A stretch of DNA of 64,000 bases from an uncultured candidate division WWE3 bacterium. Its GTDB lineage: Bacteria; Patescibacteriota; WWE3; UBA101185; UBA10185. Each line of letters opens with the position of its first letter. The stretch's first letter is position 1. Location of the stretch: the NCBI GenBank assembly GCA_903879985.1, contig CAIRNR010000007.1:465519-529518 (forward strand). Direction: 5' to 3'. Positions 8,805 to 44,950 of the stretch are shown here, piece by piece. The notes below the pieces were generated by a model. The model saw only the letters and a list, made by a program, of their open reading frames with translations. It made no database searches and was not told the DNA's origin. The position numbers were made by a program, and so were the translations under genes.

Positions 8805-8989
8805 AACGATTATTTGTATTAATTGGCGTAGTTGCTTTTGTTTGCTTGCTTTGGGTAATGTCTGGTTTTTGGCGTTTTGACAAGAAAAATTATTTAAATA
8901 ATAAAGTACTTGACATGGCTAGTCCTATAAATGGTAGTATTGACACAGAGTTATTTAAAAGTTTAGTTCCTGCCTATGAACAACAGTAA
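8801..8989 (+). CDS. Small membrane protein (62 aa)
   Basis: N-terminal TM helix; ATGA overlap with the upstream gene and a 14-nt overlap with the downstream gene. Confidence 0.35.
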   Translation: MKRLFVLIGVVAFVCLLWVMSGFWRFDKKNYLNNKVLDMASPINGSIDTELFKSLVPAYEQQ

Positions 8990-9506: not shown

Positions 9507-9562
9507 GATTCTAATCTCCACCAATATCTCAGCGTCGTCTCTATTTAGTTTATTCCGTTGTA

Positions 9563-10285
9563 TTACTTCTCGAGCGTTGCTCTTACCAATAACCTTTTTT
9601 GTCTTGTACCAGCTGGCCAGCATGTCATGAGTGTAACAGTGGATTCATTTAGATAATCAGGTTTAAACTCTGCCAAAGGATCTACTGTCACAGGATCTAC
9701 AACTTCTTTAAACTCCACTTTGTAAGTTAACTTATTGTTATTGTAATAAATATAAAATTCATCCCCAGTATCTAAATCTCCAAGCGTGGAAAAAATTGTC
9801 TTATAATTTTTAGGATTAAAAAAGAATGGTAAAACAGAATGGCCGTATATAAAGGTGTTACCTTTTTCTCCTGGAAGAGCCGACCCTATGTAGTGGCCAA
9901 TAGCTGTATCAGGATCTAAATTCGCTGGATTAGTTTCTACAATTCCCTTATCTATTTTTAATTTTGGAATCTGAATGTAAAAGTATTTTGGTACGTTAAC
10001 CTGGGTGTCTTGAGTCTTTTTCTCCCCACTAAGTTCTTTATATTCAAAGTCTGAATATCCTGTGGCAACTCCAAGAACACTCCCGCGCATTGGTTCAGCT
10101 ACATCATCTTGTGTTTTGAAAAATACTAGCGGCATTACAACTTGTGTGCCCAAAACCAAAAAGCCTAAAGCCATTAAGCCTCCGGATAATATTCTAGATT
10201 TAAAGAAGAACCCGTAATTTACGGAATGATAGATAGGATCAAAAGATTCATTTTTTAAGTAAACTTTTTTTCCAGCGTAAGGCAT
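9563..10285 (-). CDS. Sortase family transpeptidase
   Basis: 240 aa with an N-terminal TM anchor, the catalytic triad context FIYGHS (His), TLMTCWP (TLXTC Cys) and RLLVRA (Arg), and an IPKLKID beta-strand. Confidence 0.8.
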   Translation of the reverse strand: MPYAGKKVYLKNESFDPIYHSVNYGFFFKSRILSGGLMALGFLVLGTQVVMPLVFFKTQDDVAEPMRGSVLGVATGYSDFEYKELSGEKKTQDTQVNVPKYFYIQIPKLKIDKGIVETNPANLDPDTAIGHYIGSALPGEKGNTFIYGHSVLPFFFNPKNYKTIFSTLGDLDTGDEFYIYYNNNKLTYKVEFKEVVDPVTVDPLAEFKPDYLNESTVTLMTCWPAGTRQKRLLVRATLEK

Positions 10286-18344: not shown

Positions 18345-20354
18345 ATGCCAGACGAAACAAAAGTTGCCAAAGAAGACTCAGAATTTTTTAAAAATCTTAA
18401 TCCACAACAAATAGAAGCAGTAAAACACTTTGAAGGACCTGCACTTGTTGTTGCCGGTCCGGGTAGTGGAAAAACACGAGTACTTACAAATCGTGTGGCT
18501 TATTTAATTCAACAAAAACAAGTTCCCGAGTTAAATATTTTGTGCGTAACTTTCACAAACAAAGCTGCCGAAGAAATAAAAAATCGTGTAAAAGCCTTAT
18601 TAGGAACAAAAGTTTCTATTCCTTGGAGTGGAACTTTTCATTCTATTTGCGCACGAATTTTACGAAAAGATGGTTACCTAATTGGTATCCCAAAATCGTA
18701 TGTTATTTACGATGGTGACGACCAAGAAAAATTAATAAAAGGAATCGTTAAAGACTTTGGTATGGATCCTAAAAAGTTTAGTGCTCGCACAGTTTTGGGA
18801 ACAATCTCAAGTGCCAAATCCGAGCTTATTGATCACGAAAGTTACTTTGGTTTCGCACAAGGTTATTATCAAAGATCTATCGCAAAGATTTATCCTGAAT
18901 ATCAAAAGAGATTACGTGCAAACGACGCTTTAGATTTTGACGATCTTTTGGTTGAAACAGTAAATTTGTTTTTAAAAGTTCCTGAAATGTTAATTAAATA
19001 TCAAGATTTATTCCGTTACATTTTGGTTGATGAATATCAAGATACAAATAAAGTGCAATACGTTTTAACAAAAACTTTGGCCAGCGCTTACAAAAATTTA
19101 TTTGTAGTTGGTGATATGTCTCAAGCAATTTATTCTTTTCGAGGTGCAGACTTTAGAAACATTTTAAATTTTCAAAATGATTATCCGGATGCAAAGATTT
19201 ATAACCTCGAACAAAACTATCGTTCAACACAAGTAATCTTGGACGCTGCGAAAAACGTAATCAAAAATAACACAACACACATTCCTTTAGATTTATGGAC
19301 TGAAAACGGAACCGGAGAAAAAATCATTTCGTATACCGGAACATCCGAAACAGATGAAGCTCGTTTTGTTGTAGACGAAATTGTGGCCGCGCTTGATGCC
19401 GGAAAAACACACAAAGAAATCGCAGTTTTATATAGAACAAATGCTCAGTCAAGAACAATCGAAGAAGCTTTAATTCGAAATAATATTCCATATAGAATTA
19501 TCGGCGGTCAGCGATTTTATTCACGAAAAGAAGTTAAAGATGTTGTGGCATTTTTAAGAGTTATTCATAATCCAAAAGACACGGTGAGTTGGGAGAGAAT
19601 TATTAACGTACCACCTCGCGGAATCGGCCAAAAAACTGTTGAACGTTTAGCAGAAAATAAATGGGATTTAACGGAGGTTGAGTCGCGATCGAGTTTGCCA
19701 ATAAAAGCGTGGATTGCCTCAAAGGAAACTTTGTCCACATTGGAGTTAATGGAAAAAATTATTGAGGACTCCAAATATTTATCTTGGTTAAACGATGGAT
19801 CTGAAGAAAACATTCAACGAATTGAAAACATAAAAGAGTTACGTTCGGTGGCAGCACAGTTTGTAAGTCTCGAAGAATTTTTGGAAAACGTCTCATTAAT
19901 TGAAAGCAGCGATAAACCTCGTGCCGACTCCTTTAACGCTGTTACTTTAATGACTGTTCACGCGTCAAAAGGTTTGGAATTTCCACTAGTTTTTATTATC
20001 GGCATGGAAGAAGGTTTATTCCCACACAACCAATCTATGATGGACCTAACCGAACTCGAAGAAGAGCGCCGATTATGTTACGTGGCAATCACGCGTGCGA
20101 TGTCTAAATTATTTTTAACAAATGCTAGATCGAGATTATATTTTGGAACTGTTCAATCCAATTTACCCAGCAGGTTTTTAAGTGAAATACCTGAAGAATT
20201 CTTGGAGCTTCGTGAAAATGAAGCAGCAAAAAATGTTGGGGGCAGTAATGGCTTTGGAGGACATTCTCGTTTGAGATCCCCACTTAGCACTCGCGCCACA
20301 ACAGACTTTTTAGACGAACTTGACTACGACCGCGGCAATTTTAGCTGGGATTAA
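18345..20354 (+). CDS. uvrD: UvrD/PcrA-type SF1 DNA helicase
   Basis: 669 aa with Walker A AGPGSGKT, DEYQDTN, and VTLMTVHASKGLEFP. A TGaTAGAAT -10 sits 6 nt before the ATG. Confidence 0.9.
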   Translation: MPDETKVAKEDSEFFKNLNPQQIEAVKHFEGPALVVAGPGSGKTRVLTNRVAYLIQQKQVPELNILCVTFTNKAAEEIKNRVKALLGTKVSIPWSGTFHSICARILRKDGYLIGIPKSYVIYDGDDQEKLIKGIVKDFGMDPKKFSARTVLGTISSAKSELIDHESYFGFAQGYYQRSIAKIYPEYQKRLRANDALDFDDLLVETVNLFLKVPEMLIKYQDLFRYILVDEYQDTNKVQYVLTKTLASAYKNLFVVGDMSQAIYSFRGADFRNILNFQNDYPDAKIYNLEQNYRSTQVILDAAKNVIKNNTTHIPLDLWTENGTGEKIISYTGTSETDEARFVVDEIVAALDAGKTHKEIAVLYRTNAQSRTIEEALIRNNIPYRIIGGQRFYSRKEVKDVVAFLRVIHNPKDTVSWERIINVPPRGIGQKTVERLAENKWDLTEVESRSSLPIKAWIASKETLSTLELMEKIIEDSKYLSWLNDGSEENIQRIENIKELRSVAAQFVSLEEFLENVSLIESSDKPRADSFNAVTLMTVHASKGLEFPLVFIIGMEEGLFPHNQSMMDLTELEEERRLCYVAITRAMSKLFLTNARSRLYFGTVQSNLPSRFLSEIPEEFLELRENEAAKNVGGSNGFGGHSRLRSPLSTRATTDFLDELDYDRGNFSWD

Positions 20355-20396
20355 TTTTCTCAGTTCCAAAATAATTGAACTTTGGTATAGTTAAGT

Positions 20397-22067
20397 ATGC
20401 TCAATCAAAATTCCAATAAACCAACTAAATATATCTTTGTATCTGGCGGTGTTATTTCTGGCCTTGGAAAAGGAATAATAATGTCGTCGTTATCTTTACT
20501 TTTAAAACAAGCGGGTTATACCGTTTCGCCAATGAAGGCTGACATGTATTTAAACATTGATGCCGGCACAATGAACCCTTTGGAACATGGCGAATCTTTT
20601 GTTACTGAAGACGGAAAAGAAACTGATTTAGATTTAGGTCACTACGAGCGTTATTTAAATATCGATTTACATGCAAATAATTACATGACGATGGGTCAAA
20701 TATATTCTGAAGTTTTAGCAAAGGAGCGCGCTTTGGAATATCACGGTAAATGTGTAGAAGGTCATATTCATATTCCAGAAGCAATTATTGAACATATTGA
20801 AAGAAATAATAAAGACGCTGAAGTTGTCTTAATAGAAATTGGTGGCACTGTTGGGGAATATCAAAACATTTTATTTTACGAAGCCGTTCGTCGTTTTAAA
20901 CAGAAGCATAAGAACGATACTATTTTGGTTCACGTAGTTTACTTGCCGGTTCCAAAGTTTTTAGGTGAAATGAAAAGTAAACCTGCTCAAGCTTCTATTT
21001 ACGAATTATATAAGCTTGGTGTTTCTCCTGACTTTGTTATTTGCCGAAGTGAAGACGCTGTTGATGAAAAACGTCGTGGTTCTATTTCGTTTAACACGGG
21101 TGTTCCTGCAGATCACATTATTTCCAGTCCTGATGTCGATACTGTTTACAAAGTTCCGCTTGTTTTACAGGCGCAAAATTTTGAAATGTTAGTTCAGCAA
21201 GATTTAGGGTTATCGGAACCAAAAAAATCTGATCTAAGTTCTTGGCAAGCAAAGATAGATAAGATTAATGCTTTAACTGATTCTGTAACTATTGGTATTG
21301 CAGGAAAATATTTTGTTTCAGGAAATTTCAGTTTAGAAGATTCATACGTATGCGTTATTGAAGCTATTAAACACGCTTGTTGGTCCCTCAATTTAAAACC
21401 AAACATTAAATGGTTCGATGTTGAAAATTTGGATAAAGAAGAAGTAGCAAAATGTGACGGCATTATAGTTCCACAAGGTTGGGGTTCACGTGGCGTTGAA
21501 GGAAAAATCGAAACAGTTAAGTTGGCTCGCGAAAAACAGATTCCATATTTGGGACTTTGTTTCGGTATGCAAATGGCTGCCATAGAATTTGGTCGCGATG
21601 TTTTAGGTTTTGAAAAAGCAAATTCGGCCGAGGTAGACGAAAAAACAAAATATCCAGTTATTCACGTTATGCCAAACCAAGAAGAATTGTTAAAGAAACA
21701 TCAATATGGTGGAACTATTCGACTTGGTGCATGGCCTTGCTTAGTTCAAAAAGGTTCGTTGCTTGAGGAATGTTATAAAAAATGGGGAGGTAGCCGACTT
21801 GATGAAAATAATATCGCTATGGAACGTCATAGACATAGATATGAGTTTAATAACGAATATAAGGTTCAATACGAAAAAGCAGGTATGGTATTTAGTGGCA
21901 CATCTCCCGATGGAGAAATAGTTGAAACAATGGAGTTGCCAAAAGATAAACATCCATTCTTTTTAGGCACGCAGTATCATCCTGAATTTAAGTCTAGGTT
22001 TGAGTCGCCACATCCAATTTTTGTTGGTTTTATTGAGGCGAGCCGAAAAAACCAGAAGCGCGCCTAA
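20397..22067 (+). CDS. pyrG: CTP synthase
   Basis: KYIFVSGGVISGLGKG N-terminus and a glutamine amidotransferase C-domain (GLCFGMQ). Confidence 0.95.
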   Translation: MLNQNSNKPTKYIFVSGGVISGLGKGIIMSSLSLLLKQAGYTVSPMKADMYLNIDAGTMNPLEHGESFVTEDGKETDLDLGHYERYLNIDLHANNYMTMGQIYSEVLAKERALEYHGKCVEGHIHIPEAIIEHIERNNKDAEVVLIEIGGTVGEYQNILFYEAVRRFKQKHKNDTILVHVVYLPVPKFLGEMKSKPAQASIYELYKLGVSPDFVICRSEDAVDEKRRGSISFNTGVPADHIISSPDVDTVYKVPLVLQAQNFEMLVQQDLGLSEPKKSDLSSWQAKIDKINALTDSVTIGIAGKYFVSGNFSLEDSYVCVIEAIKHACWSLNLKPNIKWFDVENLDKEEVAKCDGIIVPQGWGSRGVEGKIETVKLAREKQIPYLGLCFGMQMAAIEFGRDVLGFEKANSAEVDEKTKYPVIHVMPNQEELLKKHQYGGTIRLGAWPCLVQKGSLLEECYKKWGGSRLDENNIAMERHRHRYEFNNEYKVQYEKAGMVFSGTSPDGEIVETMELPKDKHPFFLGTQYHPEFKSRFESPHPIFVGFIEASRKNQKRA

Positions 22068-22076
22068 CGCTTGGAC

Positions 22077-22170
22077 GCGATACATCAGCGCAGCTGTTCT
22101 GGCGTAATCGCCCGATCAGCGCAGCTGATATAACACCAACGTGATACATCAGCGCAGCTGATATAATGTA
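22077..22170 (+). promoter_or_regulatory. Three tandem copies of a promoter/operator module (gatacATCAGCgcaGCTGAT-ataat) ending in the rsmA extended -10
   Basis: Repeat units start at 22081, about 22112 and 22143. The last one ends TGaTATAAT, 6 nt before the rsmA ATG. The core is the palindrome ATCAGC-N3-GCTGAT. Confidence 0.5.
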
Positions 22171-22173
22171 CCC

Positions 22174-22959
22174 ATGTTTGCGCCTAAAAAAGAACTAGGT
22201 CAAAACTTCTTAAGTGATCCTGAAATTGCCACAAGCATGATCTCAGGCCTTGATATTACCGCCGGAAACGACGTTATTGAGATTGGTCCGGGCCGTGGGT
22301 TTTTAACCGAGCAACTTGCCAAAAAGGCTGTAGCCGAAGAATTTGATTTTTACGCTGTCGAACTGGATAAACGCTTTTACGAGCACCTCCAACGAACCTT
22401 TGTCGACAATCCAAATGTGCATATCGTAAACGCAAACATCTTAGATTTCCTTCCAAAGTACACAAAACCTGAAAACAAAAGTGTGAAAATACTTGGTTCT
22501 TTGCCTTATTACATAACTTCGCCAATCGTTCACCAAATTATACGTATGGCGGTCAGTCAACCAGATGAATGCGTGTTGTTGATACAAAAGGAAGTAGCCG
22601 AAAAAATTGTAGCACCCGCGCCAGATTCTTCTTATATGTCTGTTTTTGTACAAACTTTTTTTGAGGTTACATATCTTTTTACCATTCCACGCGAAAAGTT
22701 TAGTCCTGTGCCACAAGTTGATGGAGGAGTAATTAAGCTGGTTAAACGCAGTGAACTTGGTAAAGAATTTGGTGTTGATTTAACCCGAGAATTTGTCACT
22801 AAATATGAAGGTTTTTTGCATAAAGCCTTTAAGAATCCTCGCAAAATGATGAACAAACCTTTTAGCCAGGAAGAATTAGATCGCGCAGGAATATCTGCAA
22901 GTTTGCGCCCTCAAAATTTAAATTGGAAAGAATGGTTGAATTTCTATTTAAAGTTTTAA
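22174..22959 (+). CDS. rsmA: 16S rRNA (adenine1518/1519-N6)-dimethyltransferase RsmA/KsgA
   Basis: KKELGQNFL N-terminus, an EIGPGRG SAM motif, and a NLPY-type region. Confidence 0.9.
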   Translation: MFAPKKELGQNFLSDPEIATSMISGLDITAGNDVIEIGPGRGFLTEQLAKKAVAEEFDFYAVELDKRFYEHLQRTFVDNPNVHIVNANILDFLPKYTKPENKSVKILGSLPYYITSPIVHQIIRMAVSQPDECVLLIQKEVAEKIVAPAPDSSYMSVFVQTFFEVTYLFTIPREKFSPVPQVDGGVIKLVKRSELGKEFGVDLTREFVTKYEGFLHKAFKNPRKMMNKPFSQEELDRAGISASLRPQNLNWKEWLNFYLKF

Positions 22960-23681
22960 ACTTTTACCTTTGCTGATTTTCTCTTAAATCTTGGTAGTGA
23001 GTCTGAAATTACTCTGTTAGTATATTTAACGCTTGCGAAATTAATAATATTTCTAAAGATGTTTAAGGCTTTAATACCTTTGTATCTTCGGCAAGAAATC
23101 AGATTTTTAAACTCCCAATCGACTTTTATTTTTCCATATTTACTTATTCGTGTAGTGATGATGGAATCTTCGTAGAATTTATAGTTTTTAAGTAAAAATC
23201 CGCCACAGGCAAGTGTTTCCTTTGTTTTCATAGCCATGTTGCAGCCCATTAAGGAATTTTCTCTTGGTATACGTGCTAAATAATAGCCTGCATAACCAAT
23301 AACATCGTTAACAAAAACATTAGAGTCGTAAGCAAAAGATGGTCCGGTTACGCCAACTACTTCGGGATCGGCATCAAAGTCAGCTTTTGCAACCTTAAGC
23401 CAATTTTCAGGAACACGCGCATCGGCATCTGTTGTTATATAGTAGGTGCCTTTGGATTCTTCTAAACCACGTTGGCGGGCGAATGTTATTCCTTTTTTTG
23501 GTTCGTGAATGACTTTGAATCCGTATTTTTCAACGATTTCTACGCTTTTATCAGTGCTTCCATTATCAACAATCAACACCTCATACTTATCTTTTGGGTA
23601 ATCCAGCTTTTTTATGCTTTCCAAAAAAGGTGGTAAATTTTCTTCTTCATTTAGGACCGGTATAACTACGCTAAAATCCAT
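22956..23681 (-). CDS. Family 2 glycosyltransferase
   Basis: FSVVIPVLNEEENL, LIVDNGSTD, and a TTDADARV (DxD) motif. Confidence 0.8.
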   Translation of the reverse strand: MDFSVVIPVLNEEENLPPFLESIKKLDYPKDKYEVLIVDNGSTDKSVEIVEKYGFKVIHEPKKGITFARQRGLEESKGTYYITTDADARVPENWLKVAKADFDADPEVVGVTGPSFAYDSNVFVNDVIGYAGYYLARIPRENSLMGCNMAMKTKETLACGGFLLKNYKFYEDSIITTRISKYGKIKVDWEFKNLISCRRYKGIKALNIFRNIINFASVKYTNRVISDSLPRFKRKSAKVKV

Positions 23682-23999
23682 ATGTCTGTCTATTTTATCA
23701 TGTTTAGAAAATGCTTGTTTTTGTTGGGAGAAATGGCGTTTAAGGTGTCGTATAAATTAGTAATCCGGACAAATATCCCGTTGTGGTTATACTTGTCCGG
23801 ACGTATCCGAAGCAAGTTTCTACTCCTGCTTCGCAGTACCTCTTATTTTTACCCCGTCCCTTACGGAACGAAATACAAGATGTACTTGAACGTTATCGTA
23901 TTGTTACGGTTTAGTCAAATTTAGTCCGCGGAGGCGTCATTTATGTGTTATATTGTCGGCAATTAGTTTTAATCAAACAATAAAAAAGGAGTTGAGTTT

Positions 24000-24629
24000 A
24001 TGCCTGATAATACTGTAGCTCACAGCTTACGTAGACTGGTGGCGGATATTGCTTTTCATGAGTTGCCCACGCGGGATATTGTTCCTAAACAAGCCAAGCT
24101 ACTCTTATATTATATCGATGCGTATTTGGGACTTAACACTGTCTTGCAAAATGCAATTGCAAATCCCAACTGTGCTAAATTTGGCAATTGGCTTTGCACC
24201 ATGAGCGCCGCCTGGGCTTTTCTATTGGCCGGACGTCCTTACGGAACAAAGTATGCTGTCGAGGATCCTGAAATCGCGTTAGAAGAAGAGCTGGTTTGTA
24301 TGCATGCGTTTTTCCTCACGCTTGTTCCCCATAAAACGGCGGACTGGTGTTTGGCCAACTACGGTGAGGCAATCAAGGATCGTACTCAACAAATGGGATT
24401 GGCTACACGTCGTTCAGATCTTTTGAGCTTGCGTAAATCGTTCAATGCTATTTGTCGGGAACATGATTTTAAATTGACTTCAGGGGAAATGGCCACGCTA
24501 AAATTGCATGCCCAGCTGGTTGTTTCTGCAAAAGACAAAACACTTATGGAACCGGCTATTATGCTTTTCGCCGCATACTTTCTTGAAATACGCGAAAAGT
24601 ATCGTCGCATGCCCGCAAAAGCAACATAG
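24000..24629 (+). CDS. Hypothetical protein (Cys/Trp-rich, GC-elevated)
   Basis: 209 aa with a strong SD (aaAGGAGttgagtttATG). I recognise no family. Confidence 0.5.
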   Translation: MPDNTVAHSLRRLVADIAFHELPTRDIVPKQAKLLLYYIDAYLGLNTVLQNAIANPNCAKFGNWLCTMSAAWAFLLAGRPYGTKYAVEDPEIALEEELVCMHAFFLTLVPHKTADWCLANYGEAIKDRTQQMGLATRRSDLLSLRKSFNAICREHDFKLTSGEMATLKLHAQLVVSAKDKTLMEPAIMLFAAYFLEIREKYRRMPAKAT

Positions 24630-24703
24630 CTCTTGTTGTACATGCTAAAAGGTCAGATAAATAAAATTGTCTGGCCTTTATTTTTTGGTGATATACTAGC
24701 CCT

Positions 24704-25639
24704 ATGTCAACACATTTGGCTCAGTCACACTTGTGGGGAAAATTCAAAGAGGAATATGGAACTCCTGTAGTGTATGCAGGAAACGTTATGTATACAAAGC
24801 ATAAAATCCCTTTTACAGGTTCTTTTTATGCATATTGCCCGCGTGTTAATCCTTCCGATGTTAACTTTGAAGAATTAAAAAAATCCATGGAAGAAAACAA
24901 TTGTATTGCACTTCACTTTGACGTTCCTAATGTAGCCAAAGATTCTCCCGAGGCAGAAACCGCATTGGCTATTTTAGAAAAGTATTGTGAGAAATCCCCA
25001 CGCGCTGAGTTTGCAAAAGGAAACTTTATTATTGACCTAACTAAATCGGAAGAAGAATTACTCGCTGGAATGCACAACAAGCAACGTTACAACATGGGAT
25101 TGGCACAGCGCAAAGGTGTAACAGTTAAGGAAGGTTCCGCTGACGAAGATTTTGATGTCTTTTTTGAGATTTATAAACAAACGGGCATGCGTCAAAAGTT
25201 TTATTACCGTCCAAAAGCTTATTTGCACGAGGTTTTTAAATCATTTCGTTCCGACGGTTTAGCTTATATTTTAACAGCGTATTACGAGGGAAAACCTTTA
25301 GCATCTTGGATGTTATTAAAATACGAAGATGTTTTATATTATCCCTACGGTGGTTCCACAGAAGAATTTAAAAATGTGTTTGCCAGCACGCTTGTTGGTT
25401 GGGAAGCTATTAAACTTGGTAAGCGCTTAAACTGCACTTTGTTTGATATGTGGGGAGCGACAGAAGATATGAGCGATACTACGGATACATACTACGGCTT
25501 TTCCTTATTTAAACAAAAGTTTGGGGCTAAACATATTCAATATATTGATTCTTACGATTTTATAATTAACCCATCACTCTACAAAATGTTTAATATGGCC
25601 AACGGTGTTCGTTGGAAGATTTTGAATGTTTTACGATGA
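24704..25639 (+). CDS. FemAB-family aminoacyl-tRNA-dependent peptidyltransferase (paralog 1)
   Basis: 311 aa with a FemX-like pattern (HNKQRYN, LYYPYGGS). TGaTATACT sits 6 nt before the ATG (leaderless type). Confidence 0.7.
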   Translation: MSTHLAQSHLWGKFKEEYGTPVVYAGNVMYTKHKIPFTGSFYAYCPRVNPSDVNFEELKKSMEENNCIALHFDVPNVAKDSPEAETALAILEKYCEKSPRAEFAKGNFIIDLTKSEEELLAGMHNKQRYNMGLAQRKGVTVKEGSADEDFDVFFEIYKQTGMRQKFYYRPKAYLHEVFKSFRSDGLAYILTAYYEGKPLASWMLLKYEDVLYYPYGGSTEEFKNVFASTLVGWEAIKLGKRLNCTLFDMWGATEDMSDTTDTYYGFSLFKQKFGAKHIQYIDSYDFIINPSLYKMFNMANGVRWKILNVLR

Positions 25640-26538
25640 AGCACGCGCTTGATATTAGACAAACGGACGAATGGGGAAAATATTTAGCATCAATGGGTTG
25701 GAAGCAGTTTAGAACTGCGCGAGGCATTGGTGTTGTTGTTAAGAAAATGTTTTTTGGTAGTGTTATAAAAGTGCAACGTCCCCAAGATGTAGTTCTCCAA
25801 GATTTACGCGATATAGATGAAATTTGTGTAAAGAATAAAGGTTTGTTTATTAAGTTTGAACCCGATTTTAAACAAGATTTAAGTATTTTTAAAACCGCCG
25901 GCTACGAATTCAGTTATAGTCCATTGTGTCCTCCAACAACTATTTATATTGATCTCACAAAAAGCGAGGAAGAGTTATGGGCCGCAGTTTCTCATAGTGG
26001 AAAATATTCTATTAATCGTGCTCGTCGTGAAGGTGCGCACGTTAAATTTTTTCCACGCCCCGACACCGAAATTTTAAAAAAATACCATGCAGTGAATGTT
26101 GAGACCGGAAAGCTAAAAAAGTTTTATGTACAGCCTTTTAAAGAGCAATTAGCTAAGGTTGCGGCGTTTGGTGACAACTGCGTGCTAGCCGCTGTTTACG
26201 ATGCGGATGAAAACATGGTTGGCGGAAAAATATTTTTAGGCGGTGGTGATATGGTTTTATACAACACAGGTGGCACGACAGCTAAGGGGCGTCACCAGAA
26301 GTCTGGATATTTGTTAGTTTGGGAAACATTTTTATATTTTAAAAAGCTTGGTTATTCAGTTATGGATCTCGAAGGTAAAGACGACAAACGCTTTCCTTTA
26401 TTTACAGGAAATTGGGGGGGTTTTAGTCACTTTAAGGAAAAGTTTAACGGTGAAACTGTAGAATTTCCTATTCCTTACATTAAGTTTTTGAGTCCTGTTA
26501 TGGAAATTATGGCGAAGGCTACGCCGATGGGGCTTTAG
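25636..26538 (+). CDS. FemAB-family peptidyltransferase (paralog 2)
   Basis: 300 aa from the internal Met, which forms an ATGA overlap with paralog 1. The domain pattern is the same (SGKYSINRARREG, VLYNTGG). Confidence 0.7.
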   Translation: MKHALDIRQTDEWGKYLASMGWKQFRTARGIGVVVKKMFFGSVIKVQRPQDVVLQDLRDIDEICVKNKGLFIKFEPDFKQDLSIFKTAGYEFSYSPLCPPTTIYIDLTKSEEELWAAVSHSGKYSINRARREGAHVKFFPRPDTEILKKYHAVNVETGKLKKFYVQPFKEQLAKVAAFGDNCVLAAVYDADENMVGGKIFLGGGDMVLYNTGGTTAKGRHQKSGYLLVWETFLYFKKLGYSVMDLEGKDDKRFPLFTGNWGGFSHFKEKFNGETVEFPIPYIKFLSPVMEIMAKATPMGL

Positions 26539-26569
26539 TTTTTACCTATTACCCTATACCCTATAGCAT

Positions 26570-26598
26570 TTGACCAATTAGGTTTTGGCCTGTATAAT
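26570..26598 (+). promoter_or_regulatory. Canonical sigma-70-type promoter TTGACC-N17-TATAAT
   Basis: TTGACC at 26570-75 and TATAAT at 26593-98, with a TG immediately upstream of the -10. Confidence 0.5.
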
Positions 26599-26644
26599 CA
26601 ACCTATTCAAGATTAAGACTACGATATATTAGGGAAAAGGGTGA

Positions 26645-26866
26645 TTGATCATGTGGAATAAACTCGCAAGTGGATGGAAGGCTCTGTGGATATATGTGCA
26701 CATCATTCTGGAAACCGATGTTCGCGCGTATGATGATCCGTTTTGGCTCCTTGGTTGCTCTCCTGCACCTGAGACTCGCAAGATGTTAAAGGCAGGACGA
26801 ACTCGTGCGCTGGGTAAAAGTAAAACCCGGAAGATTAAACCTATGCGGCATGGTCTTGGAATTTAA
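26645..26866 (+). other. Orphan transcription unit: 73-aa basic ORF or structured small RNA (about 310 nt from promoter to terminator)
   Basis: GC is clearly above the local background. It is bracketed by the promoter above and the terminator below. The ORF has a weak SD (AAGGGTGA). I detect no RNase P, tmRNA or SRP signature motifs. Confidence 0.3.
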
Positions 26867-26885
26867 TCAGCTTTAGCCGCAGTAA

Positions 26886-26928
26886 TCGCCATGTGAATTT
26901 CAAATTCCCGTGGCGATTTTTTTACCCC
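26886..26928 (+). terminator. Intrinsic terminator (plus strand)
   Basis: atcgccatg...cgtggcgat stem followed by ttttttt. Confidence 0.6.
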
Positions 26929-29798
26929 TTATACGCAAAAGGACACAAATCTCTATAATCACACCAACTACAATGCATCCCGGGAGTAGCTGTAAAGTTG
27001 GCCTTTTTCAATTCTTCCATAACATTAAATATTTGATCGCGTTGTTCCTCTAGTTGCAAAGGTGTACGGGTGGTGGATAACTTTTCGCCGCTTTCTACAA
27101 AATAATAACTTAGCAAAGTTGGGTTAAGTCCAAATGCTTCTTTTGCGGCTATAGCGTAAATGGAAACCTGTGCGTCCTTATCAACATCTTTTTGAGTTTT
27201 GGTTTGGCCTGTTTTGTAATCTATAATTTCCACGCCACCGTCAGGTGCTGCGTCGATACGGTCAATTTTTCCATAAAACTTAATTCCGTTTAGACGTAAC
27301 GTAAAAGGTTTTTCCAAACCAATGTGTTTAACGTGAAGTGGATTATTTTTTTCATAATATGCGGTAAGCAGTTTTTTTCCGTTCTCAAAATATAAGTTGC
27401 GGTGATTTTCATCCATGTAGCCCAGCGGTTGCCATTTTTCTTCATACACCTGCATAAGTTGTTCTAAAGATAAGTCTTCGTCAAACATTTTTTTCAAATG
27501 GAATTCACGCAAACTTTCGTGAATTGTTATACCAAAACTTAACGCGTGGTTTGGTGCTGTTGGAATTCGGAGAACATATGAAAATTTATATTTTAATGGA
27601 CAAGTTAAAAACGTATCCATTTGTGTAAAACTCAATGAGTCAGGTTTAAAAGATTTTATTATTGGTGTGGTGTCAGGATTTCTAAAACCGGAATCTACGC
27701 CAAATAATCCAGTTTGTGTTTGTCGATTTTTAATATCTTCGGCCGAAATTTCTTCAGGTTTAATTCCTGTTTCCTGAAGGTAACCACTTGGAGTTTTGTC
27801 ACGTTTACCGCCGTAATTTTTACCGTGAGTTAAATACAAATATTTGCATGCGCGGGTCATACCAACGTAAAAAAGTCTGCGCTCTTCTTGGATGTGCTCG
27901 TCACCTGTAGGAAGTGTTTCTTTGATTAACTCGTTTGGTATTTCAATAACGTCAGATTTATTTCTTGTTGGGAATCTGTCGGCAACAAGGTTAACTAAAA
28001 ATACAACTGGAAACTCTAAACCCTTTGATGCATGAACAGTCATTAAGTTTACCGTGTCTATATCTTCTATTTCGGCTTGAGCTGGGTTATCTCCGGCATC
28101 TATTATCAAATCTAAATAGTCCACAAAGTCTATTAATGTAGGTAAGTTTTTGTTTTCCTCGTGGTAATCAACTTCGAATCTTTTTATGATCCCCAAAAAT
28201 ATGTCCAAGTTTTTTATGGCCATTGAATTCTCAATTGATTCTTCTTGAGTGAACTGGCTCACATATTCAATTGATGTAACTAAATTAAAGACTAATTGTG
28301 TGGGCGATGTTTTTGTTATCTCCGCTTGATATTTTCTTATTTTCTCTTTAAGGGAAATGACTTCTGCATTTTGAGATTCGTTAATTGTTTCCCAAAGATC
28401 TTGTTTTTTGTAACGGGAACTCGTGAGAAGATTTGAGATTTCTTCAAAAGGAATGTTTAAAGTACTTATGTTTAGTGTGCGATATAAACTTATATTGTCT
28501 TTTGGATTTAAAACAACTTTTAGAAGTGCAATAATATCTCGAATTTCGTCCTGATCGTATAAACCTCGGTTTCCAACTAATTGATAAGGAAGCCCATATT
28601 TTCTAAGCGCCAACATAAATGGATCTAAATGGCTGTTTGCTCTTGCCAAAATTGCGATGTCTTTGTAAGTATACTGAGGTTCTTTTGCCAAAATATCCTG
28701 AATCTCTTTTACAACAAACTCAACTTCATCTTCCAAAGTTTCGGTATGAATAATGTGTGGTGCGTCTCCTGTTTGATCGGCTTTACTTATTAACTTTTTT
28801 GAGATTCCCAAGCGCGATTCTAAAGTATCCGGGTTATTGTTTTGAATTAGCTTGTACGATGGATCCAATATTTTTTGAGTAGAACGATAGTTTTCCAATA
28901 GTGTAATCATCTCGGCTTTTGGATAATCTTCCATGAATTGTAAAATATTTGAAACGGCAGCTCCACGAAATTTGTAAATTGATTGTGAGTCATCTCCGAC
29001 GGCAATTAAACTTCTTTCGCCCATTTCTTGCGGACACATCATTTTTATTAATTCGTATTGGGCATAGTTGGTATCTTGAAACTCGTCGAGCAGTACGTGT
29101 TTAAATTGATCCTGATATTTCTTTAGTATGTTTGGCCTTTGTTTAAAAAGTTCTATTGTCCAAGTTATTAAGTCGCCAAAGTCCATGCGCGAGTTTGCCA
29201 TTTTAAGCTCAGAATATCTTTCGTAAATGTAGGCAAGTTCTTTAAATCTTTTGGTTTCTTCTTCGGATTCAAAGGTTGATGTTTCCACAAACTTTGTAAA
29301 GTCTGTTGGCATAATATTTTCATCTTGAAGTCGTGACATGAACTTTAAAAAGGCGCCGATAAATTTTGTTGGGTTACCCAGCGGCCTAAAATATTGAAGA
29401 TTTAATTTAAAGATATTTCTTCTTAGCAAGATCCATTGATCAGGTCCGGAAAGTATTTTGTATCCTGGGTCTAATCCAATTTCGATTCCTTCAGATCGTA
29501 GCAATCGGTCGGCAAAAGAGTGGAATGTGCACACCCAAGGTTCTTCGTAACCTAAAGGCATAACATCGCTTAATCTATTTAGCATTTCGGCCGCAGCTTT
29601 TTCGGTAAATGTTAAAGCTAAGATTTCTTTTGAGTTTACGTTTTCATTTGTAACAAGATTTTTTATACGTTCCGTAATAACGCGTGTTTTTCCTGTGCCT
29701 GCTCCCGCCACAACTAATAAGGGACCTGTTTTATGTAATACTGTTTTTGATTGATTTTCGTTTAGTTCAAATGTTGTCTTGGTTTTTTTAGCAGTCAT
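26922..29798 (-). CDS. Single-polypeptide helicase-nuclease: UvrD-like SF1 helicase fused to a C-terminal PD-(D/E)XK (RecB/Cas4-type) nuclease with a Cys cluster
   Basis: 958 aa. Helicase motifs: Walker A AGAGTGKT, DEFQDTN, LMTVHASKGLEFP. Nuclease motifs: GKIDRID...EIIDYKTG. Cys residues in CPLKYK and CSWCDYRDLC give a C...CxxCx5C pattern. Confidence 0.75.
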   Translation of the reverse strand: MTAKKTKTTFELNENQSKTVLHKTGPLLVVAGAGTGKTRVITERIKNLVTNENVNSKEILALTFTEKAAAEMLNRLSDVMPLGYEEPWVCTFHSFADRLLRSEGIEIGLDPGYKILSGPDQWILLRRNIFKLNLQYFRPLGNPTKFIGAFLKFMSRLQDENIMPTDFTKFVETSTFESEEETKRFKELAYIYERYSELKMANSRMDFGDLITWTIELFKQRPNILKKYQDQFKHVLLDEFQDTNYAQYELIKMMCPQEMGERSLIAVGDDSQSIYKFRGAAVSNILQFMEDYPKAEMITLLENYRSTQKILDPSYKLIQNNNPDTLESRLGISKKLISKADQTGDAPHIIHTETLEDEVEFVVKEIQDILAKEPQYTYKDIAILARANSHLDPFMLALRKYGLPYQLVGNRGLYDQDEIRDIIALLKVVLNPKDNISLYRTLNISTLNIPFEEISNLLTSSRYKKQDLWETINESQNAEVISLKEKIRKYQAEITKTSPTQLVFNLVTSIEYVSQFTQEESIENSMAIKNLDIFLGIIKRFEVDYHEENKNLPTLIDFVDYLDLIIDAGDNPAQAEIEDIDTVNLMTVHASKGLEFPVVFLVNLVADRFPTRNKSDVIEIPNELIKETLPTGDEHIQEERRLFYVGMTRACKYLYLTHGKNYGGKRDKTPSGYLQETGIKPEEISAEDIKNRQTQTGLFGVDSGFRNPDTTPIIKSFKPDSLSFTQMDTFLTCPLKYKFSYVLRIPTAPNHALSFGITIHESLREFHLKKMFDEDLSLEQLMQVYEEKWQPLGYMDENHRNLYFENGKKLLTAYYEKNNPLHVKHIGLEKPFTLRLNGIKFYGKIDRIDAAPDGGVEIIDYKTGQTKTQKDVDKDAQVSIYAIAAKEAFGLNPTLLSYYFVESGEKLSTTRTPLQLEEQRDQIFNVMEELKKANFTATPGMHCSWCDYRDLCPFAYKG

Positions 29799-29860
29799 CG
29801 TTTTTGTATTATATCGCAGGAAGCGTTAAAATAGGCGTACAAATTCAGTAGGAGGTACTA

Positions 29861-29989
29861 ATGGACGTAGTTGGCTTAGTGATTAGTGGCGTGCTGCTTA
29901 TTGCAGGTTTACTCACTCTGGGGCATTACTTTGTCGCGAATTCAAGTCCGGAGGAACTTCAACAAATGGGCATCTCTCTGAAACAATAA
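29861..29989 (+). CDS. Putative 42-aa membrane peptide
   Basis: Perfect SD taGGAGGTactaATG and a single TM (VVGLVISGVLLIAGLLTLG). It falls below the ORF-track length cutoff. Confidence 0.35.
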   Translation: MDVVGLVISGVLLIAGLLTLGHYFVANSSPEELQQMGISLKQ

Positions 29990-30056
29990 CCACCGTCGTC
30001 GTTTTTCATCGCTAAGGGTCTTCAAGTTTGCACGTTGAAACTGAGGACCCGTTTTT

Positions 30057-31148
30057 TTAGTCGATTAACTTTGTTTGGCCTGTTCCTGGTTCAAGTTCTT
30101 CCTCAATGTCTTGTTCTATTTCACTGGCGTGTTCGATTTTTCCAAACAGCTTTGTGAATTTACCTCTAACAAAATCCATTGATTTGAAACTGTTTGAAAT
30201 ATGTCGCTCAAGTACCCCGAGGTCTTCGCCAAATTTTTCGGCTTCAATTCTAATTCCCGACAAAGCTTTTAATATTTCACCAGCATGTTTTTGTAATGTT
30301 TGTTGCTGATAGGCGACAAGCAAAACCTTTAAAAAGTAAGTTAATGTATTTGGTGACGCCATAATTACATTTTTCGCTTTGCAGTAAGCTTCAAGGTCCG
30401 GTGTATTTACAATAAGTTCGTAGTAAACATTTTCCGATGGAATGTACATGATTGCTTGTTCTGTTGTATGTTCGGCAGGCAAAATATATTTTGACGAAAT
30501 TTCATCAACTCTTTTTTTAACGTCAGACAAAAATGTTTTTTTGTATTTGTCGCGTAATTCTTGCGTTTCAGCGTTTAACATTGCAGCAAAGTTTTCCATT
30601 GGAAATTTAGAATCAATTGGAATTAAACCTCGGTCGGTAATAACAACAGCGTCGCAAATGTTTCCATCTTTAAATTTATATTGAGTCTTAAATAAATCTT
30701 TGGGTAAAAAGTTTTCCAAGATTTCGTACAACAATTGCTCACCAAGTCCTCCACGTAATTTTGGAGAACGTAAGATATTTGCTAAATCTTTCATGTCAGT
30801 TCCAAACTCCTGTAAACCTCCCAATTGTTTTTGTACGGCTCTGACAATTTCTTGTGAAGCATCTAAGCGTTCCCAAATTAATTTTGTTTGTGCATTCATT
30901 GCCTCGCGTTGTGTTTTCATTTGAACTTCCAATGTTGTACGCTGATCTTTCAGTTGTCGTTCAATAACGTCAGAATTTTTATCAACAGAACCTTTCATGT
31001 CTTTCAACCATTCCATTAAAACTCCTGAGTCATCTTTTTTTAATTCGGTTTTTAGATTTTTTATTTGTGAAAGTAATATGTACGCAATTAATCCAAAGAA
31101 AGCTATTATTCCTACAAAGGCTATGATTATTATTTGTGTTTCAGGCAT
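30057..31148 (-). CDS. rmuC: DNA recombination protein RmuC
   Basis: An N-terminal TM, a long coiled coil, then the RmuC C-terminal nuclease-like domain. The start is placed at the Met before the TM. Confidence 0.75.
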   Translation of the reverse strand: MPETQIIIIAFVGIIAFFGLIAYILLSQIKNLKTELKKDDSGVLMEWLKDMKGSVDKNSDVIERQLKDQRTTLEVQMKTQREAMNAQTKLIWERLDASQEIVRAVQKQLGGLQEFGTDMKDLANILRSPKLRGGLGEQLLYEILENFLPKDLFKTQYKFKDGNICDAVVITDRGLIPIDSKFPMENFAAMLNAETQELRDKYKKTFLSDVKKRVDEISSKYILPAEHTTEQAIMYIPSENVYYELIVNTPDLEAYCKAKNVIMASPNTLTYFLKVLLVAYQQQTLQKHAGEILKALSGIRIEAEKFGEDLGVLERHISNSFKSMDFVRGKFTKLFGKIEHASEIEQDIEEELEPGTGQTKLID

Positions 31149-31198
31149 GAGAGTAGGATAGCACGGCAGGTGTTTATACGCCATGATACAATCAAAGC

Positions 31199-31558
31199 AT
31201 GCCAAAGTTCATCTACTCGGTTTACTTATTTATGGCACTTAGCTGGGCCGCTGTTATCTTTGTAATTTTCAATACCAAACCTACTTCAACTCCCGCTATT
31301 ATGCTTTTTCTCTTTTTTCTTTTCTTTGCACTTGGGTTTACTCTTTCCGTACCAACCTTTATCGGCTATCAAAAGCTACATCCAACATTCACCGCCCAAC
31401 GTGGTTTATATCGTAAAGGTTTAAAGTGGGGATTTTACTTATCCTTTGGAATTACAGGTTTGTCGTTACTAAAAGCTTTTGACCTTTTGCAGGTTATAAA
31501 CATCGTACTGTTTGTGCTTTTTTACATATTACTTTCCACGCAGTTACGGGGAAGATAG
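31199..31558 (+). CDS. Membrane protein, hypothetical
   Basis: 119 aa with 3-4 TM helices. Confidence 0.45.
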   Translation: MPKFIYSVYLFMALSWAAVIFVIFNTKPTSTPAIMLFLFFLFFALGFTLSVPTFIGYQKLHPTFTAQRGLYRKGLKWGFYLSFGITGLSLLKAFDLLQVINIVLFVLFYILLSTQLRGR

Positions 31559-31598
31559 CTAAAAAGTGGCACGCAGGTGATAAAATATCCCTAGCCGT

Positions 31599-33026
31599 AT
31601 GAAAAAGACCAAATTACTTATTACAACTGCAATAGACTACACAAACGATGTTATTCACATTGGGCATGCCTACCAAAAGGTTTTGTCTGATTGCTTAGCG
31701 CGTTATTATCGCCATACGTTTGGTCCTGAAAAAGTATATTTCTTAACCGGTACAGATGAGCATGGTTCTACCAACGAAAAAGCCGCCAAAGCGCGCAATA
31801 TTTTACCCCTTGACCATGTAACCGAAATATCAGCCAAAGATAAAGAACAACTCGACGCCCTAAATCTCTCTTATAATCGTTTTATTCGTACAACTAATGA
31901 GGATCACAAAAAAATTGCTCAAGATTTCATGCAGAAGTCCTTTGATAATGGAGATATATATTTAGGTAAGTACGAAGGTTTGTATTGTGAAGGCTGTGAG
32001 TCGTATAAAACCCTTTCTGAGTTAAACGATGACGGGCAATGCTTGTTACATCCAACACGCCAGATCCAAAAAATTGAAGAAGAAAATTACTTTTTTAGAT
32101 GGAGTAAATACGTTGATTTCCTAAAGGATTTATTATCCGAGCACGGTTTTGTTTATCCCGAAGGTAAGCGAAAAGAAATGTTAGCCCTTGTTACACAAGG
32201 TTTAGAAGATTTGCCTGTAAGTCGCCCAAAATACAAAGTTTCTTGGGGAATTGATGTCCCATTTGATCACGAACACGTTATTTATGTTTGGTTTGATGCT
32301 TTGATTAACTATTACACCGCGGGTGTTCAAAACGGATTTTGGGATGACGAAACAGAAATTATTCATGTTTTAGGTAAAGATAATGCTAAGTGGCATGCGG
32401 TTTTATGGCCTGCAATGTTAAAGAGTGCCGGATATCGTTTGCCAGACACAGTTTATGTTCATGGATTTATAAACCTGGATGGAGAAAAGATCAGTAAATC
32501 TCGTGGAAATGTTATAAGACCAACTGAATTGACTGAAAAGTTTGGTGTTGATCCCGTAAGATATTACTTTTTAAAGCAAGGTCCCATTGTTGAAGATGTA
32601 AACATAAGTTTAGATCAGTTTAGAGAAGTTTATAATGCGGATTTAGCGAATGGTTTAGGTAATACGGTGGCACGTTTAGCCAAGTTGGCTGAAAAATCCG
32701 GAGAGACACTAAACATTTGTATGCCGGCACAAGAAGTTTGGACTGAAACTTGGTCAGACTCGTTTAAAGAATTTCGTGTTGATTTAGTTTTACAAGGTGT
32801 GTGGGCAAAACTTTCGGAAATTGATAAACATATCAACGATAACGAACCATGGAGTATTAAGGACAAAGCAAAGTTAAAAGAAGTTTTAGAATTTGAAATC
32901 ACTAAACTAATGGAAGTGGCCGTTATACTAGAGCCATTTATGCCTGCGACTTCTGAAAAAATAGTAAGTCAGTTTGAGACGGGAAAAGTGATTGCCGAGA
33001 CGCCGCTGTTTCCTCGAATATCTTAA
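31599..33026 (+). CDS. metG: Methionyl-tRNA synthetase (core, 475 aa)
   Basis: HIGHAY (HIGH) and KISKSRG (KMSKS) motifs. Confidence 0.9.
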   Translation: MKKTKLLITTAIDYTNDVIHIGHAYQKVLSDCLARYYRHTFGPEKVYFLTGTDEHGSTNEKAAKARNILPLDHVTEISAKDKEQLDALNLSYNRFIRTTNEDHKKIAQDFMQKSFDNGDIYLGKYEGLYCEGCESYKTLSELNDDGQCLLHPTRQIQKIEEENYFFRWSKYVDFLKDLLSEHGFVYPEGKRKEMLALVTQGLEDLPVSRPKYKVSWGIDVPFDHEHVIYVWFDALINYYTAGVQNGFWDDETEIIHVLGKDNAKWHAVLWPAMLKSAGYRLPDTVYVHGFINLDGEKISKSRGNVIRPTELTEKFGVDPVRYYFLKQGPIVEDVNISLDQFREVYNADLANGLGNTVARLAKLAEKSGETLNICMPAQEVWTETWSDSFKEFRVDLVLQGVWAKLSEIDKHINDNEPWSIKDKAKLKEVLEFEITKLMEVAVILEPFMPATSEKIVSQFETGKVIAETPLFPRIS

Positions 33027-34411
33027 TGACTAATTTACCCGAGAATTTTAAAAAAGCACTGATAATTATTTCCACCAAATTAAAAGATTATCCTTATGCA
33101 ATACGTGGTACGTCTAGCTTGGTTTTGCAAGGATTTGAAATGAACGCTGATGATATTGATATATTAGGGGACGAAAAAGTTGCTGGTGTTGCCAACGAAC
33201 TTTTTAAAGAATATTTAGTTGAACCTGTTGAATATAAAGAATCTGATAAATTCATTTCTCATTACGGGAAATTCGATATTGAAGGCGTGCAAGTCGAGTT
33301 TATGTGTGATTGGAAGATCAAAGATACTAAGGGAAATTGGACAGAAGCCTATACCGCAGTTGAAAGAAAACCTATTGATTTGGAAGGCCATGAAATTTAT
33401 GTAACCACACCCCAGCTTGAGTTAGAATTTTTCACAAAAATGGGCCGTTGGAATGCCTTTCACAAATTAAGAAAGCAACTTCCTACTCACGAGAAAATGT
33501 TGGTCATAGACACCTTTAATATTATGCATCGTGCTTACCACGCGATTCCCGCGACTTTTAAAGACCTTGAAGGAAATCCCACCAACGCAATTTACGGTGT
33601 CACTTCAATGATTATAAATTTACTCGATCAAGTTAAACCTCAATATTTTGTAGCAGCCATCGATGGAGAAAAACCCGTATTTAGACACGAAGATTTTACT
33701 GGTTACAAAGCACACCGTCGTCCTGTCGAAGATGATTTGTCCGTACAAATTAAAAAGGTTTTCGAAATACTTGAGGCTTTTGGTATCAAACAAATTCAAG
33801 TTGATGGTTACGAGGCAGACGATATTATTGGCACGTTATCTACAAAGTTTGTCGGAGAAGTTGACGTTATTATTAATTCTAACGATCGTGACTTGTGGCA
33901 GTTAACTGGGGAAAATGTTTTTTTACTTGTACCCAGCAAAGGTGGAGATTTAGAATGGCTTGGTCGCAAAGAAGTTACAGCCCGCCTAGGTTTTAGTCCC
34001 GAGCAAGTTCCCGACTATAAAGGTTTGCGAGGTGATCCTTCTGATAATATTCCCGGAGTTTTTGGTATTGGCGAGGTTACAGCTACTAAATTAATAAAAG
34101 AATTCGGCTCTGTTGAAGAGATTTATAAAAATATTGAAAAGGTGCAGCCCGAAGCATTACGAGAAAAACTACTTAATTGCTACGAACAGGCAGTTATGAG
34201 CAAAAAGCTGGCACAGATTATTTGTGATGTTCCTATGCACGTAGAGCTGGCCGAATGTAAGTATAGTGATTACAATCGCACTAAAATTCGAGATGTTTTG
34301 CAAAAGTATGGTTTTAAATCTTTGATTAAGCGTTTAGGTTTTGATACCGAGGGGAAGCCCAGTAAAGCTAGTAAGACCGTTGTAGCGGAAGATCAGTTGG
34401 CCCTGTTCTAA
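33026..34411 (+). CDS. Fusion: N-terminal Pol-beta-superfamily nucleotidyltransferase-like domain plus 5'-3' exonuclease/FEN (Pol I N-terminal type)
   Basis: Residues 1-155 carry RGTSSLVLQGFEMNADDIDILGD (the G[ST]...D.D NTase signature, Lnu-like). Residues 158-461 carry the FEN acidic clusters (IDT, AAIDGE, DGYEADDIIGT, SNDRDLWQL) and an H3TH. There is no stop between the domains, and the start overlaps the metG stop (TAATG). Confidence 0.7.
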   Translation: MTNLPENFKKALIIISTKLKDYPYAIRGTSSLVLQGFEMNADDIDILGDEKVAGVANELFKEYLVEPVEYKESDKFISHYGKFDIEGVQVEFMCDWKIKDTKGNWTEAYTAVERKPIDLEGHEIYVTTPQLELEFFTKMGRWNAFHKLRKQLPTHEKMLVIDTFNIMHRAYHAIPATFKDLEGNPTNAIYGVTSMIINLLDQVKPQYFVAAIDGEKPVFRHEDFTGYKAHRRPVEDDLSVQIKKVFEILEAFGIKQIQVDGYEADDIIGTLSTKFVGEVDVIINSNDRDLWQLTGENVFLLVPSKGGDLEWLGRKEVTARLGFSPEQVPDYKGLRGDPSDNIPGVFGIGEVTATKLIKEFGSVEEIYKNIEKVQPEALREKLLNCYEQAVMSKKLAQIICDVPMHVELAECKYSDYNRTKIRDVLQKYGFKSLIKRLGFDTEGKPSKASKTVVAEDQLALF

Positions 34412-44515: not shown

Positions 44516-44529
44516 TGGTTATATGATAT

Positions 44530-44853: not shown

Positions 44854-44904
44854 TGTTTGGATTCTATCAGCTTTGTATTTGGGTAGCTATGGGTGAGCAA
44901 CTAT

Positions 44905-44950
44905 TTGTAATGGAAAAAAAGAAGCGCCTGTTAGTTTTTTTAACAGACGC
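44905..44950 (-). terminator. Intrinsic terminator for the upstream minus-strand membrane-protein genes
   Basis: gcgtctgtta...taacaggcgc stem followed by ttcttttttt on the minus strand. Confidence 0.5.

Follow-up and report, generated by a model that had tools for sequence, protein, structure and literature searches.

A 383-nt gap between converging genes (26539 to 26921) in the 64-kb window, the whole stretch of DNA that we analyzed, is filled by a promoter-to-terminator unit that is probably a monocistronic gene for a 71-amino-acid (71-aa) small protein of a very rare, unnamed family, inserted in one lineage. Upstream lies a femAB-family (femB-like) gene on the + strand (25612/25636 to 26538; Pfam FemAB and Acetyltransf_6), which is the second of a tandem femAB-family pair and ends with the TAG stop codon at 26536 to 26538. 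Downstream, the gene for a 958-aa UvrD-helicase/PDDEXK_1 helicase-nuclease occupies the − strand from 26922 to 29798, with its stop codon at 26922 to 26924. The original prediction had named these same neighbors, and it had described the interval as an orphan GC-rich transcription unit for either a small RNA or a 73-aa basic protein. Every feature that it listed (promoter, terminator, raised GC content, and open reading frame [ORF]) is present, and the sequence supports a self-contained transcription unit with a promoter, a Shine-Dalgarno (SD) site, an ORF, and a terminator. Of the two proposed products, the small protein found support and the structured or 6S-like RNA did not.

The small-protein reading draws on a collinear homolog in a clearly translated context, on the best codon score among the six frames, and on a usable SD site. 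We infer that the ORF is transcribed and translated and that the unit arrived by horizontal insertion. The gene would have its own sigma-70-type promoter, a 5′ untranslated region (UTR) of ~46 nt carrying the SD site, and an intrinsic terminator that would also stop transcription entering the converging helicase-nuclease gene. In this lineage alone, the ~380-bp unit would have inserted where the stop codons of femB and the helicase gene had abutted, and its source would probably have been higher in GC and related to a three-gene island beside a tRNA gene in another low-GC genome.

Expression signals and coding capacity

The sigma-70-type promoter, TTGACC-N17-TATAAT on the + strand at 26570 to 26598, lies exactly where it had been predicted, matches the consensus at 11 of 12 positions, and ranks first among 31 promoter-like sites in the surrounding 14 kb (20000 to 34000). 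A scan of the whole window found six sites with at least 11 of 12 matches, compared with 2.15 ± 1.4 in Markov-simulated sequence, and three of the five further sites are directly upstream of genes in the correct orientation. Because the consensus is enriched and most of these other sites precede genes, a sigma-70-like consensus appears to be genuinely used by this organism. The usual spacing would place the transcription start of the unit near 26605. Elsewhere in the window, a 1.27-kb stretch of the − strand (44516 to 45788) has no ORF of ≥120 aa and carries a second promoter, TTGACC-N18-TATAAT at 45758 to 45729, which precedes two SD-led small hydrophobic (membrane-protein) ORFs of ~110 aa (45758 to 44970, − strand). 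These ORFs are followed by a hairpin plus T run and then by another small basic ORF, and the small genes of this stretch are probably genuine.

The SD site GGGTGAT (+ strand, 26639 to 26645) is separated by a 5-nt spacer from the ATG at 26651. As RNA, all 7 nt of GGGUGAU can pair with the canonical 16S tail GAUCACCUCCUU found in the window, where the 16S 3′ tail GGATCACCTCCTTTCT lies at 59891 to 59906. The site had been called only weak, which with 7 pairs and this spacer it is not especially. The 16S rRNA gene itself (58466 to 59906) covers model positions 1 to 1533 in 1,441 nt, ~90 nt under the bacterial consensus. The layout of the rRNA operon is atypical in that the 16S-23S spacer (59907 to 63408) is 3.5 kb long and contains protein-coding ORFs, namely a CofD/YvcK-family gene (61802 to 62806; Pfam CofD, E 8e-83), a 213-aa ORF, and a 254-aa ORF, together with tRNA-Ile(GAT) at 61028 to 61104 (− strand) and tRNA-Ala(TGC) at 62992 to 63068 (+ strand).

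The intrinsic terminator (+ strand, 26884 to 26923) consists of a hairpin at 26884 to 26918 and a run of seven T's at 26917 to 26923 that overlaps the stop codon at the end of the convergent helicase gene. The hairpin has a 10-bp lower stem, a 1×1 mismatch, a 5-bp upper stem, and a 3-nt loop (15 pairs), with a ΔG of −17.2 kcal/mol (z −4.72), and none of 200 shuffles folded equally well. A 9-bp stem plus T7 had been placed at 26886 to 26928; the terminator and its T7 stand, with the stem and coordinates only approximate. Our pattern scan for terminators passed over this hairpin because the upper stem was counted as loop.

Between these signals, the ORF (+ strand, 26651 to 26866) encodes 71 aa plus a stop codon (MWNKLASGWKALWIYVHIILETDVRAYDDPFWLLGCSPAPETRKMLKAGRTRALGKSKTRKIKPMRHGLGI), as supported by public gene calls, by the homolog P0005, and by its codon score. 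The predicted 73-codon frame is indeed open, and the start is better placed at the ATG at 26651 than at the TTG at 26645, since public gene calls use the ATG and the N terminus of the homolog aligns there. At least 22 public contigs carry the ORF as an annotated 71-aa protein (P0001). These contigs are all 100% identical to the window over 26400 to 27000 and hence represent one population, with no information on selection. Samples in which the genome occurs include ERR4195937, ERR4413528, and the BUCK21-1 series. The unit is found in every contig of the window species that bears the neighboring femB. Its UTRs are short (~46 nt at the 5′ end and ~17 nt at the 3′ end), there is no pseudogene debris within it, and the ORF accounts for 68% of the predicted transcript.

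Under a codon model whose training set was 30 long ORFs of the window, the ORF frame scored +0.016 per codon, the best of the six frames (the other five ranged from −0.19 to −0.86), and it is the only one of the six that is open. This score is well above that of out-of-frame sequence (−0.80 ± 0.29) and far below that of resident genes (0.30 ± 0.09), among which no 71-codon chunk scored as low. The ORF also shows GC1>GC2>GC3, as real genes do. A recently imported gene would look like this, although the profile falls short of proof.

The product is predicted to be a basic, helical small protein that does not span the membrane. Its pI is 10.35 (~10.4), its 18-residue tail (LGKSKTRKIKPMRHGLGI) is very basic (pI 12), and it contains the peptides LASGWK, ALWIYVHIILETDVR, and AYDDPFWLLGCSPAPETR. 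AlphaFold, run on the two-sequence alignment of this protein and its homolog, gave an all-helical model of low confidence (mean pLDDT 64) with helices at residues 2 to 21 and 40 to 59, two short turns at the conserved DDPxWL, and a disordered tail at residues 60 to 71; Foldseek found nothing in the PDB that resembled this model. Kyte-Doolittle means over 19 residues peak at 0.74 for the ORF and at 0.33 for P0005, so that no transmembrane segment is predicted, and the N-terminal helix of P0005 is strongly amphipathic (μH ~0.6). Neither protein matched a family in Pfam, NCBIfam, PHROGs, PADLOC, or the PDB, the best match being phrog_6410 (E 0.048; unknown function). These features fit a small soluble or interface-binding protein and argue against a type I membrane toxin. 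The Trp-rich N-terminal helix, the conserved D-x-R-A-x-D-D-P-x-W-L-x-G turn, the second helix, and the basic tail suggest that the product may be a small soluble or peripherally membrane-associated accessory protein, whose role would be binding, to a partner or to nucleic acid, and not catalysis.

The homolog P0005 and its locus

A homology check of the peptide, as suggested with the original prediction, turned up one collinear small-protein homolog. This protein, P0005, was the fourth non-self match in an exhaustive HMMER search of the ORF product against 1.84 billion cluster representatives and the one homolog that we accepted. It is a hypothetical protein of 59 aa encoded at 490 to 669 of Logan contig SRR22388223_255941 (L021), and it gave a single-stretch match between query residues 1 to 53 and target residues 3 to 55, with 38% identity and an E value of 3.2e-4, which we read as significant, not overwhelming, evidence of homology. 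The three matches that scored above it (P0002 to P0004) were spurious; they are long repeat proteins in which 4 to 8 weak repeat matches were summed, and they are mutually unrelated (an uncharacterized repeat, a TPR/STAND protein, and a cadherin-like/fn3 protein).

BLASTP aligned P0001 and P0005 without gaps (20/53 identities), and 23 columns of the alignment are invariant. The motif common to both is W-x6-WK ... D-x-R-A-x-DDP-x-WL-x-G-x2-P-x2-ET-x-KM. The aligned 159 nt of the two ORFs are 49% identical, with identities of 0.51, 0.55, and 0.42 at codon positions 1, 2, and 3, and the alternative frames of this segment carry stops. Word-indexed protein searches, with the ORF and with a profile of the ORF plus P0005, returned only P0001 and P0005, and back-translated pattern scans of JGI metagenome and IMG/VR viral contigs yielded no relatives. 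A degenerate DNA pattern for D-x-RA-x-DDP-x-WL-x-G had 8 matches, all on contigs of 64 to 68% GC and with no further similarity, and a promoter-box pattern had 3 unrelated matches in viral contigs; we attribute both sets to chance. The unit had no blastn match in phage and plasmid collections. By the exhaustive HMMER and pattern searches, the family has two members.

The homolog resides on a 2.8-kb low-GC contig as the middle gene of a compact trio whose products are 106, 59, and 121 aa long, and every gene of the trio has an AGGAG site ahead of it. The trio comes just after the 3′ end of a tRNA gene and is followed by an MFS transporter gene. No useful family, PDB, or viral relatives were found for its 106-aa and 121-aa neighbors. 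The contig starts with the tRNA 3′ end and an encoded CCA (GGTTCGAGTCCTCCCGGGAGAGCCA), and the promoter headed by CCTATAGCA follows four nucleotides on. This region (1 to 1265) resembles a small island at a tRNA gene, with no integrase visible on the contig.

The best promoter-like site of the L021 contig is TTTACA-N17-TAAAAT at 45 to 73, and the sequence leading into it recurs in the window. Upstream of the window promoter, a box (CCTATACCCTATAGCATTTGAC; + strand, 26553 to 26574) aligns without gaps to positions 28 to 49 of that contig at 18 of 22 nt, with the −35 hexamers in register; this similarity was noticed post hoc and is singly marginal (local-alignment p ~0.03). The box contains the 9-mer CCTATAGCA, which is identical at both loci, lies immediately 5′ of the −35 hexamer in each, and occurs once in the window. 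Because the promoters align in register and the proteins match, homology of the units is more credible than it would be from the protein E value alone. The 3′ flanks of the window unit and the L021 operon share no similarity, and none to the L021 flanking genes is left in the window unit.

P0005 and the window ORF are thus alike in being collinear from the N terminus, similar in size, GC-elevated relative to a low-GC host, and preceded by promoters in register. They differ in genomic setting, P0005 belonging to an operon by a tRNA 3′ end and the window gene being solitary. In P0005 the basic 18-residue tail is also missing, and the N-terminal helix has a charged, amphipathic character, whereas that of the window ORF is hydrophobic.

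The GC content of the ORF is 0.479 and that of the unit 0.448 (16S rRNA, 0.536). Chunks of 213 nt from the long ORFs of the window have a mean GC content of 0.373 ± 0.034, and 0 of 161 reach the value of the ORF, which is 3 standard deviations above host genes. The claim that the unit is richer in GC than its flanking genes therefore holds (0.45 to 0.48 versus 0.37), and the accompanying reading of raised GC as a mark of structured RNA is the less likely one. The operon of the homolog is likewise GC-elevated relative to its host (0.443 versus 0.352 for the MFS gene), so that foreign origin is a likelier cause of the raised GC content than RNA structure.

The femB/helicase junction in relatives

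A scan of the helicase protein against one genome per GTDB species identified seven syntenic loci, labeled as Saccharibacteria or WWE3 metagenome-assembled genomes, with helicases that are 52 to 65% identical to that of the window. The names attached to these genomes and to homologous femB proteins point to a bacterium of the WWE3/Patescibacteria type. At five of the seven (L010, L011, L013, L015, and L016), the femB-like and helicase genes end 0 to 25 nt apart, and at the other two (L012 and L014), 2.7 to 3.4 kb of unrelated genes lie at the junction. The inserts at these two loci (L012, 7869 to 10616; L014, 7860 to 11289) encode secreted or membrane proteins. Since two relatives carry unrelated genes at the same place, we interpret the femB/helicase junction as a recurrent site of gene gain or loss in the clade.

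The closest relative, L030, was found through the femB protein (69% identical) and has the same gene order, RrnaAD-GT2-hyp-femA-femB / helicase-RmuC. At its junction nothing separates the femB TAA from the helicase stop (...ATGTAA/TTACCCTTTATACGC). Its orthologous helicase-nuclease gene (5946 to 9929 of ENA ATLA15-1 scaffold_44) encodes 1,327 aa, compared with 958 aa in the window, and has Intein_splicing and Hint Pfam matches, indicating an intein insertion that is absent from the window gene. Some ENA assemblies (L007 to L009; proteins P0006 and P0111) call the femB-like gene as 326 aa with its TAG read as Gln, a call that runs to the TAA at 26614 to 26616, across the promoter (...PMGLQFLPITLYPIAFDQLGFGLYNQPIQD). 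We regard TAG recoding in this gene as an artifact of gene calling with an alternative genetic code; the L030 ortholog ends at the same residue with TAA.

The spacer had no blastn similarity to the relatives or to the rest of the window, in which it is single copy. It is flanked by a 13-nt direct repeat, whose left copy (TTTTTACCTATTA; + strand, 26539 to 26551) immediately follows the TAG of the femB-like gene and whose right copy (TTTTTACCCCTTA; + strand, 26919 to 26931) overlaps the last codons and the stop of the helicase-nuclease gene on the − strand. The copies are identical at 11 of 13 nt and spaced 380 nt apart, and they share an exact 8-mer, TTTTTACC, whose repetition is marginal (p ~0.03 to 0.05 versus shuffles and genomic controls) and was noticed post hoc. 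Deleting one copy of TTTTTACC together with the insert gives ...GGGCTTTAG-TTT-TTACCCCTTATACGC (TAG-TTT-TTA), which is essentially the arrangement of L030. Because the spacer is absent in L030 and most relatives, is flanked by a direct repeat, and can be conceptually excised to leave a junction like that of the relatives, we interpret the ~380-bp unit as a lineage-specific insertion that is not ancestral at the locus.

By eye, 26539 to 26568 could also pass for a longer, degenerate copy of the end of the helicase gene; only the 8-mer (11/13) holds up. A short tandem duplication (26549 to 26566; TTACC-TA-TTACCCTATA-CCCTATA) is found between the left direct repeat and the promoter and could represent a decayed remnant of the helicase 3′ end (TTACCCCTTATACGC), an interpretation that is statistically unsupported.

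In its 380-bp length, its marginal 8-bp (11/13) direct repeat, and the ancestral-type junction left by conceptual excision, the unit resembles MITE-like elements, miniature non-autonomous insertions that create target-site duplications. It is unlike them in lacking terminal inverted repeats, in occurring once in the 64-kb window, in carrying a complete gene, and in having no copies in the phage, plasmid, viral, or metagenome scans. Apart from the terminator hairpin, which is strong, its inverted repeats (I2 to I4) are internal and weak. It is doubtful, with only a slim chance in its favor, that the unit from the CCTATAGCA box onward is a tiny mobile cassette without its own recombinase, moving between low-GC Patescibacteria-type genomes. 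Such a cassette would insert at gene or tRNA ends and leave an 8-bp duplication, and its Trp-rich basic protein would give an accessory function, e.g., by interfering with a phage or with a process that involves the host surface or DNA.

Alternative explanations and significance

The product could instead be a noncoding RNA of ~320 nt (a riboregulator or a 6S-like RNA) in which the ORF is incidental, which we consider quite unlikely. A strong promoter and terminator do bracket a GC-elevated stretch, and the codon usage of the ORF is atypical for the genome. The unit also resembles the genes for 6S RNA, RNase P RNA, tmRNA, and signal recognition particle (SRP) RNA in standing alone with a promoter, a terminator, and a GC content above the genome mean; unlike them, it has no covariance-model match, no rod-like or unusually stable fold, and no conservation of its locus. 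In a cmscan search against 4,227 Rfam families, only rRNA and tRNA reached the gathering score in the window, and even at an E value of ≤10 there was no match on the + strand of 26400 to 27100; a snoR113 match at this threshold is a chance match on the − strand inside the helicase gene. ARAGORN found only tRNA-Ile and tRNA-Ala in the window and no tmRNA, so the earlier failure to see RNase P, tmRNA, or SRP features agrees with both programs. Structure prediction was equally unfavorable. The minimum free energy (MFE) of the predicted transcript, −84.9 kcal/mol, is no better than that of dinucleotide shuffles (−86.3 ± 5.7 kcal/mol; z +0.24), 58 of 100 of which fold equally well, and the MFE structure is multibranched, with the terminator as its sole exceptional structure, whereas 6S RNA (RF00013 and clan) is a double-stranded rod with a central bubble. 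Since the interval is absent from L030 and five of the seven other relatives, it is not a conserved housekeeping RNA locus. Together with the lack of an Rfam match and the unremarkable fold, this absence tells against the suggested 6S-like RNA or riboregulator. The sole detectable relative is similar at the protein level and sits inside an SD-led operon, and the ORF takes up most of the predicted transcript.

Two further explanations accept the ORF and differ over what it does. It may be intact and functionless, an inert leftover of a larger inserted island like that on the L021 contig or the inserts of 2.7 to 3.4 kb in L012 and L014. This is unlikely, though not negligible. In its favor, the homolog is within a three-gene operon and the window gene is alone, the femB/helicase junction is variable among relatives, codon adaptation is poor, and the identical contigs show no sign of selection. 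Against decay, the unit keeps a complete promoter, SD site, ORF, and terminator in a compact arrangement with short UTRs and neither pseudogene debris nor similarity to the L021 flanking genes, and the unit accompanies femB in every contig of the species. A type I toxin-antitoxin-like module, in which a small toxic peptide is under antisense RNA control, would account for a small, basic, Trp-rich protein encoded by a stand-alone, horizontally acquired unit, and we nevertheless find it extremely improbable. Hok/Fst/TisB-like type I toxins have a hydrophobic transmembrane helix, and this protein, by the hydropathy values given above, has no transmembrane segment; the N-terminal helix of its homolog is charged and amphipathic. 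A consensus scan of 26500 to 27000 found no promoter-like site of at least 9 of 12 matches on the − strand, PADLOC returned no match, and the homolog is an internal operon gene.

The preferred reading, a small-protein gene inserted in one lineage, makes the unit fairly ordinary, a small gene of restricted taxonomic range whose insertion history is unusually easy to read. Orphan (taxonomically restricted) small-protein genes are abundant in Patescibacteria/CPR genomes. The window gene is like these in being short, in belonging to no Pfam, NCBIfam, or PHROG family, and in having an atypical composition, a patchy distribution, and its own expression signals. It is unlike them in having one distant homolog and an insertion scar, so that it is neither a strict singleton nor a de novo ORF. 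Background literature includes PMC9132574 and PMC4888513.

A candidate missing structured RNA is in this way replaced by a well-delimited orphan small-protein gene, whose importance is modest and whose insertion scar is directly readable against relatives. Judging from the signals around it, a WWE3-type genome appears to use canonical sigma-70 promoters, SD sites, and intrinsic terminators. Should expression be demonstrated, the gene would become a tractable candidate for small-protein work, with no pointer to a new mechanism, and its two-member unnamed family joins the large pool of unknown Patescibacteria genes.
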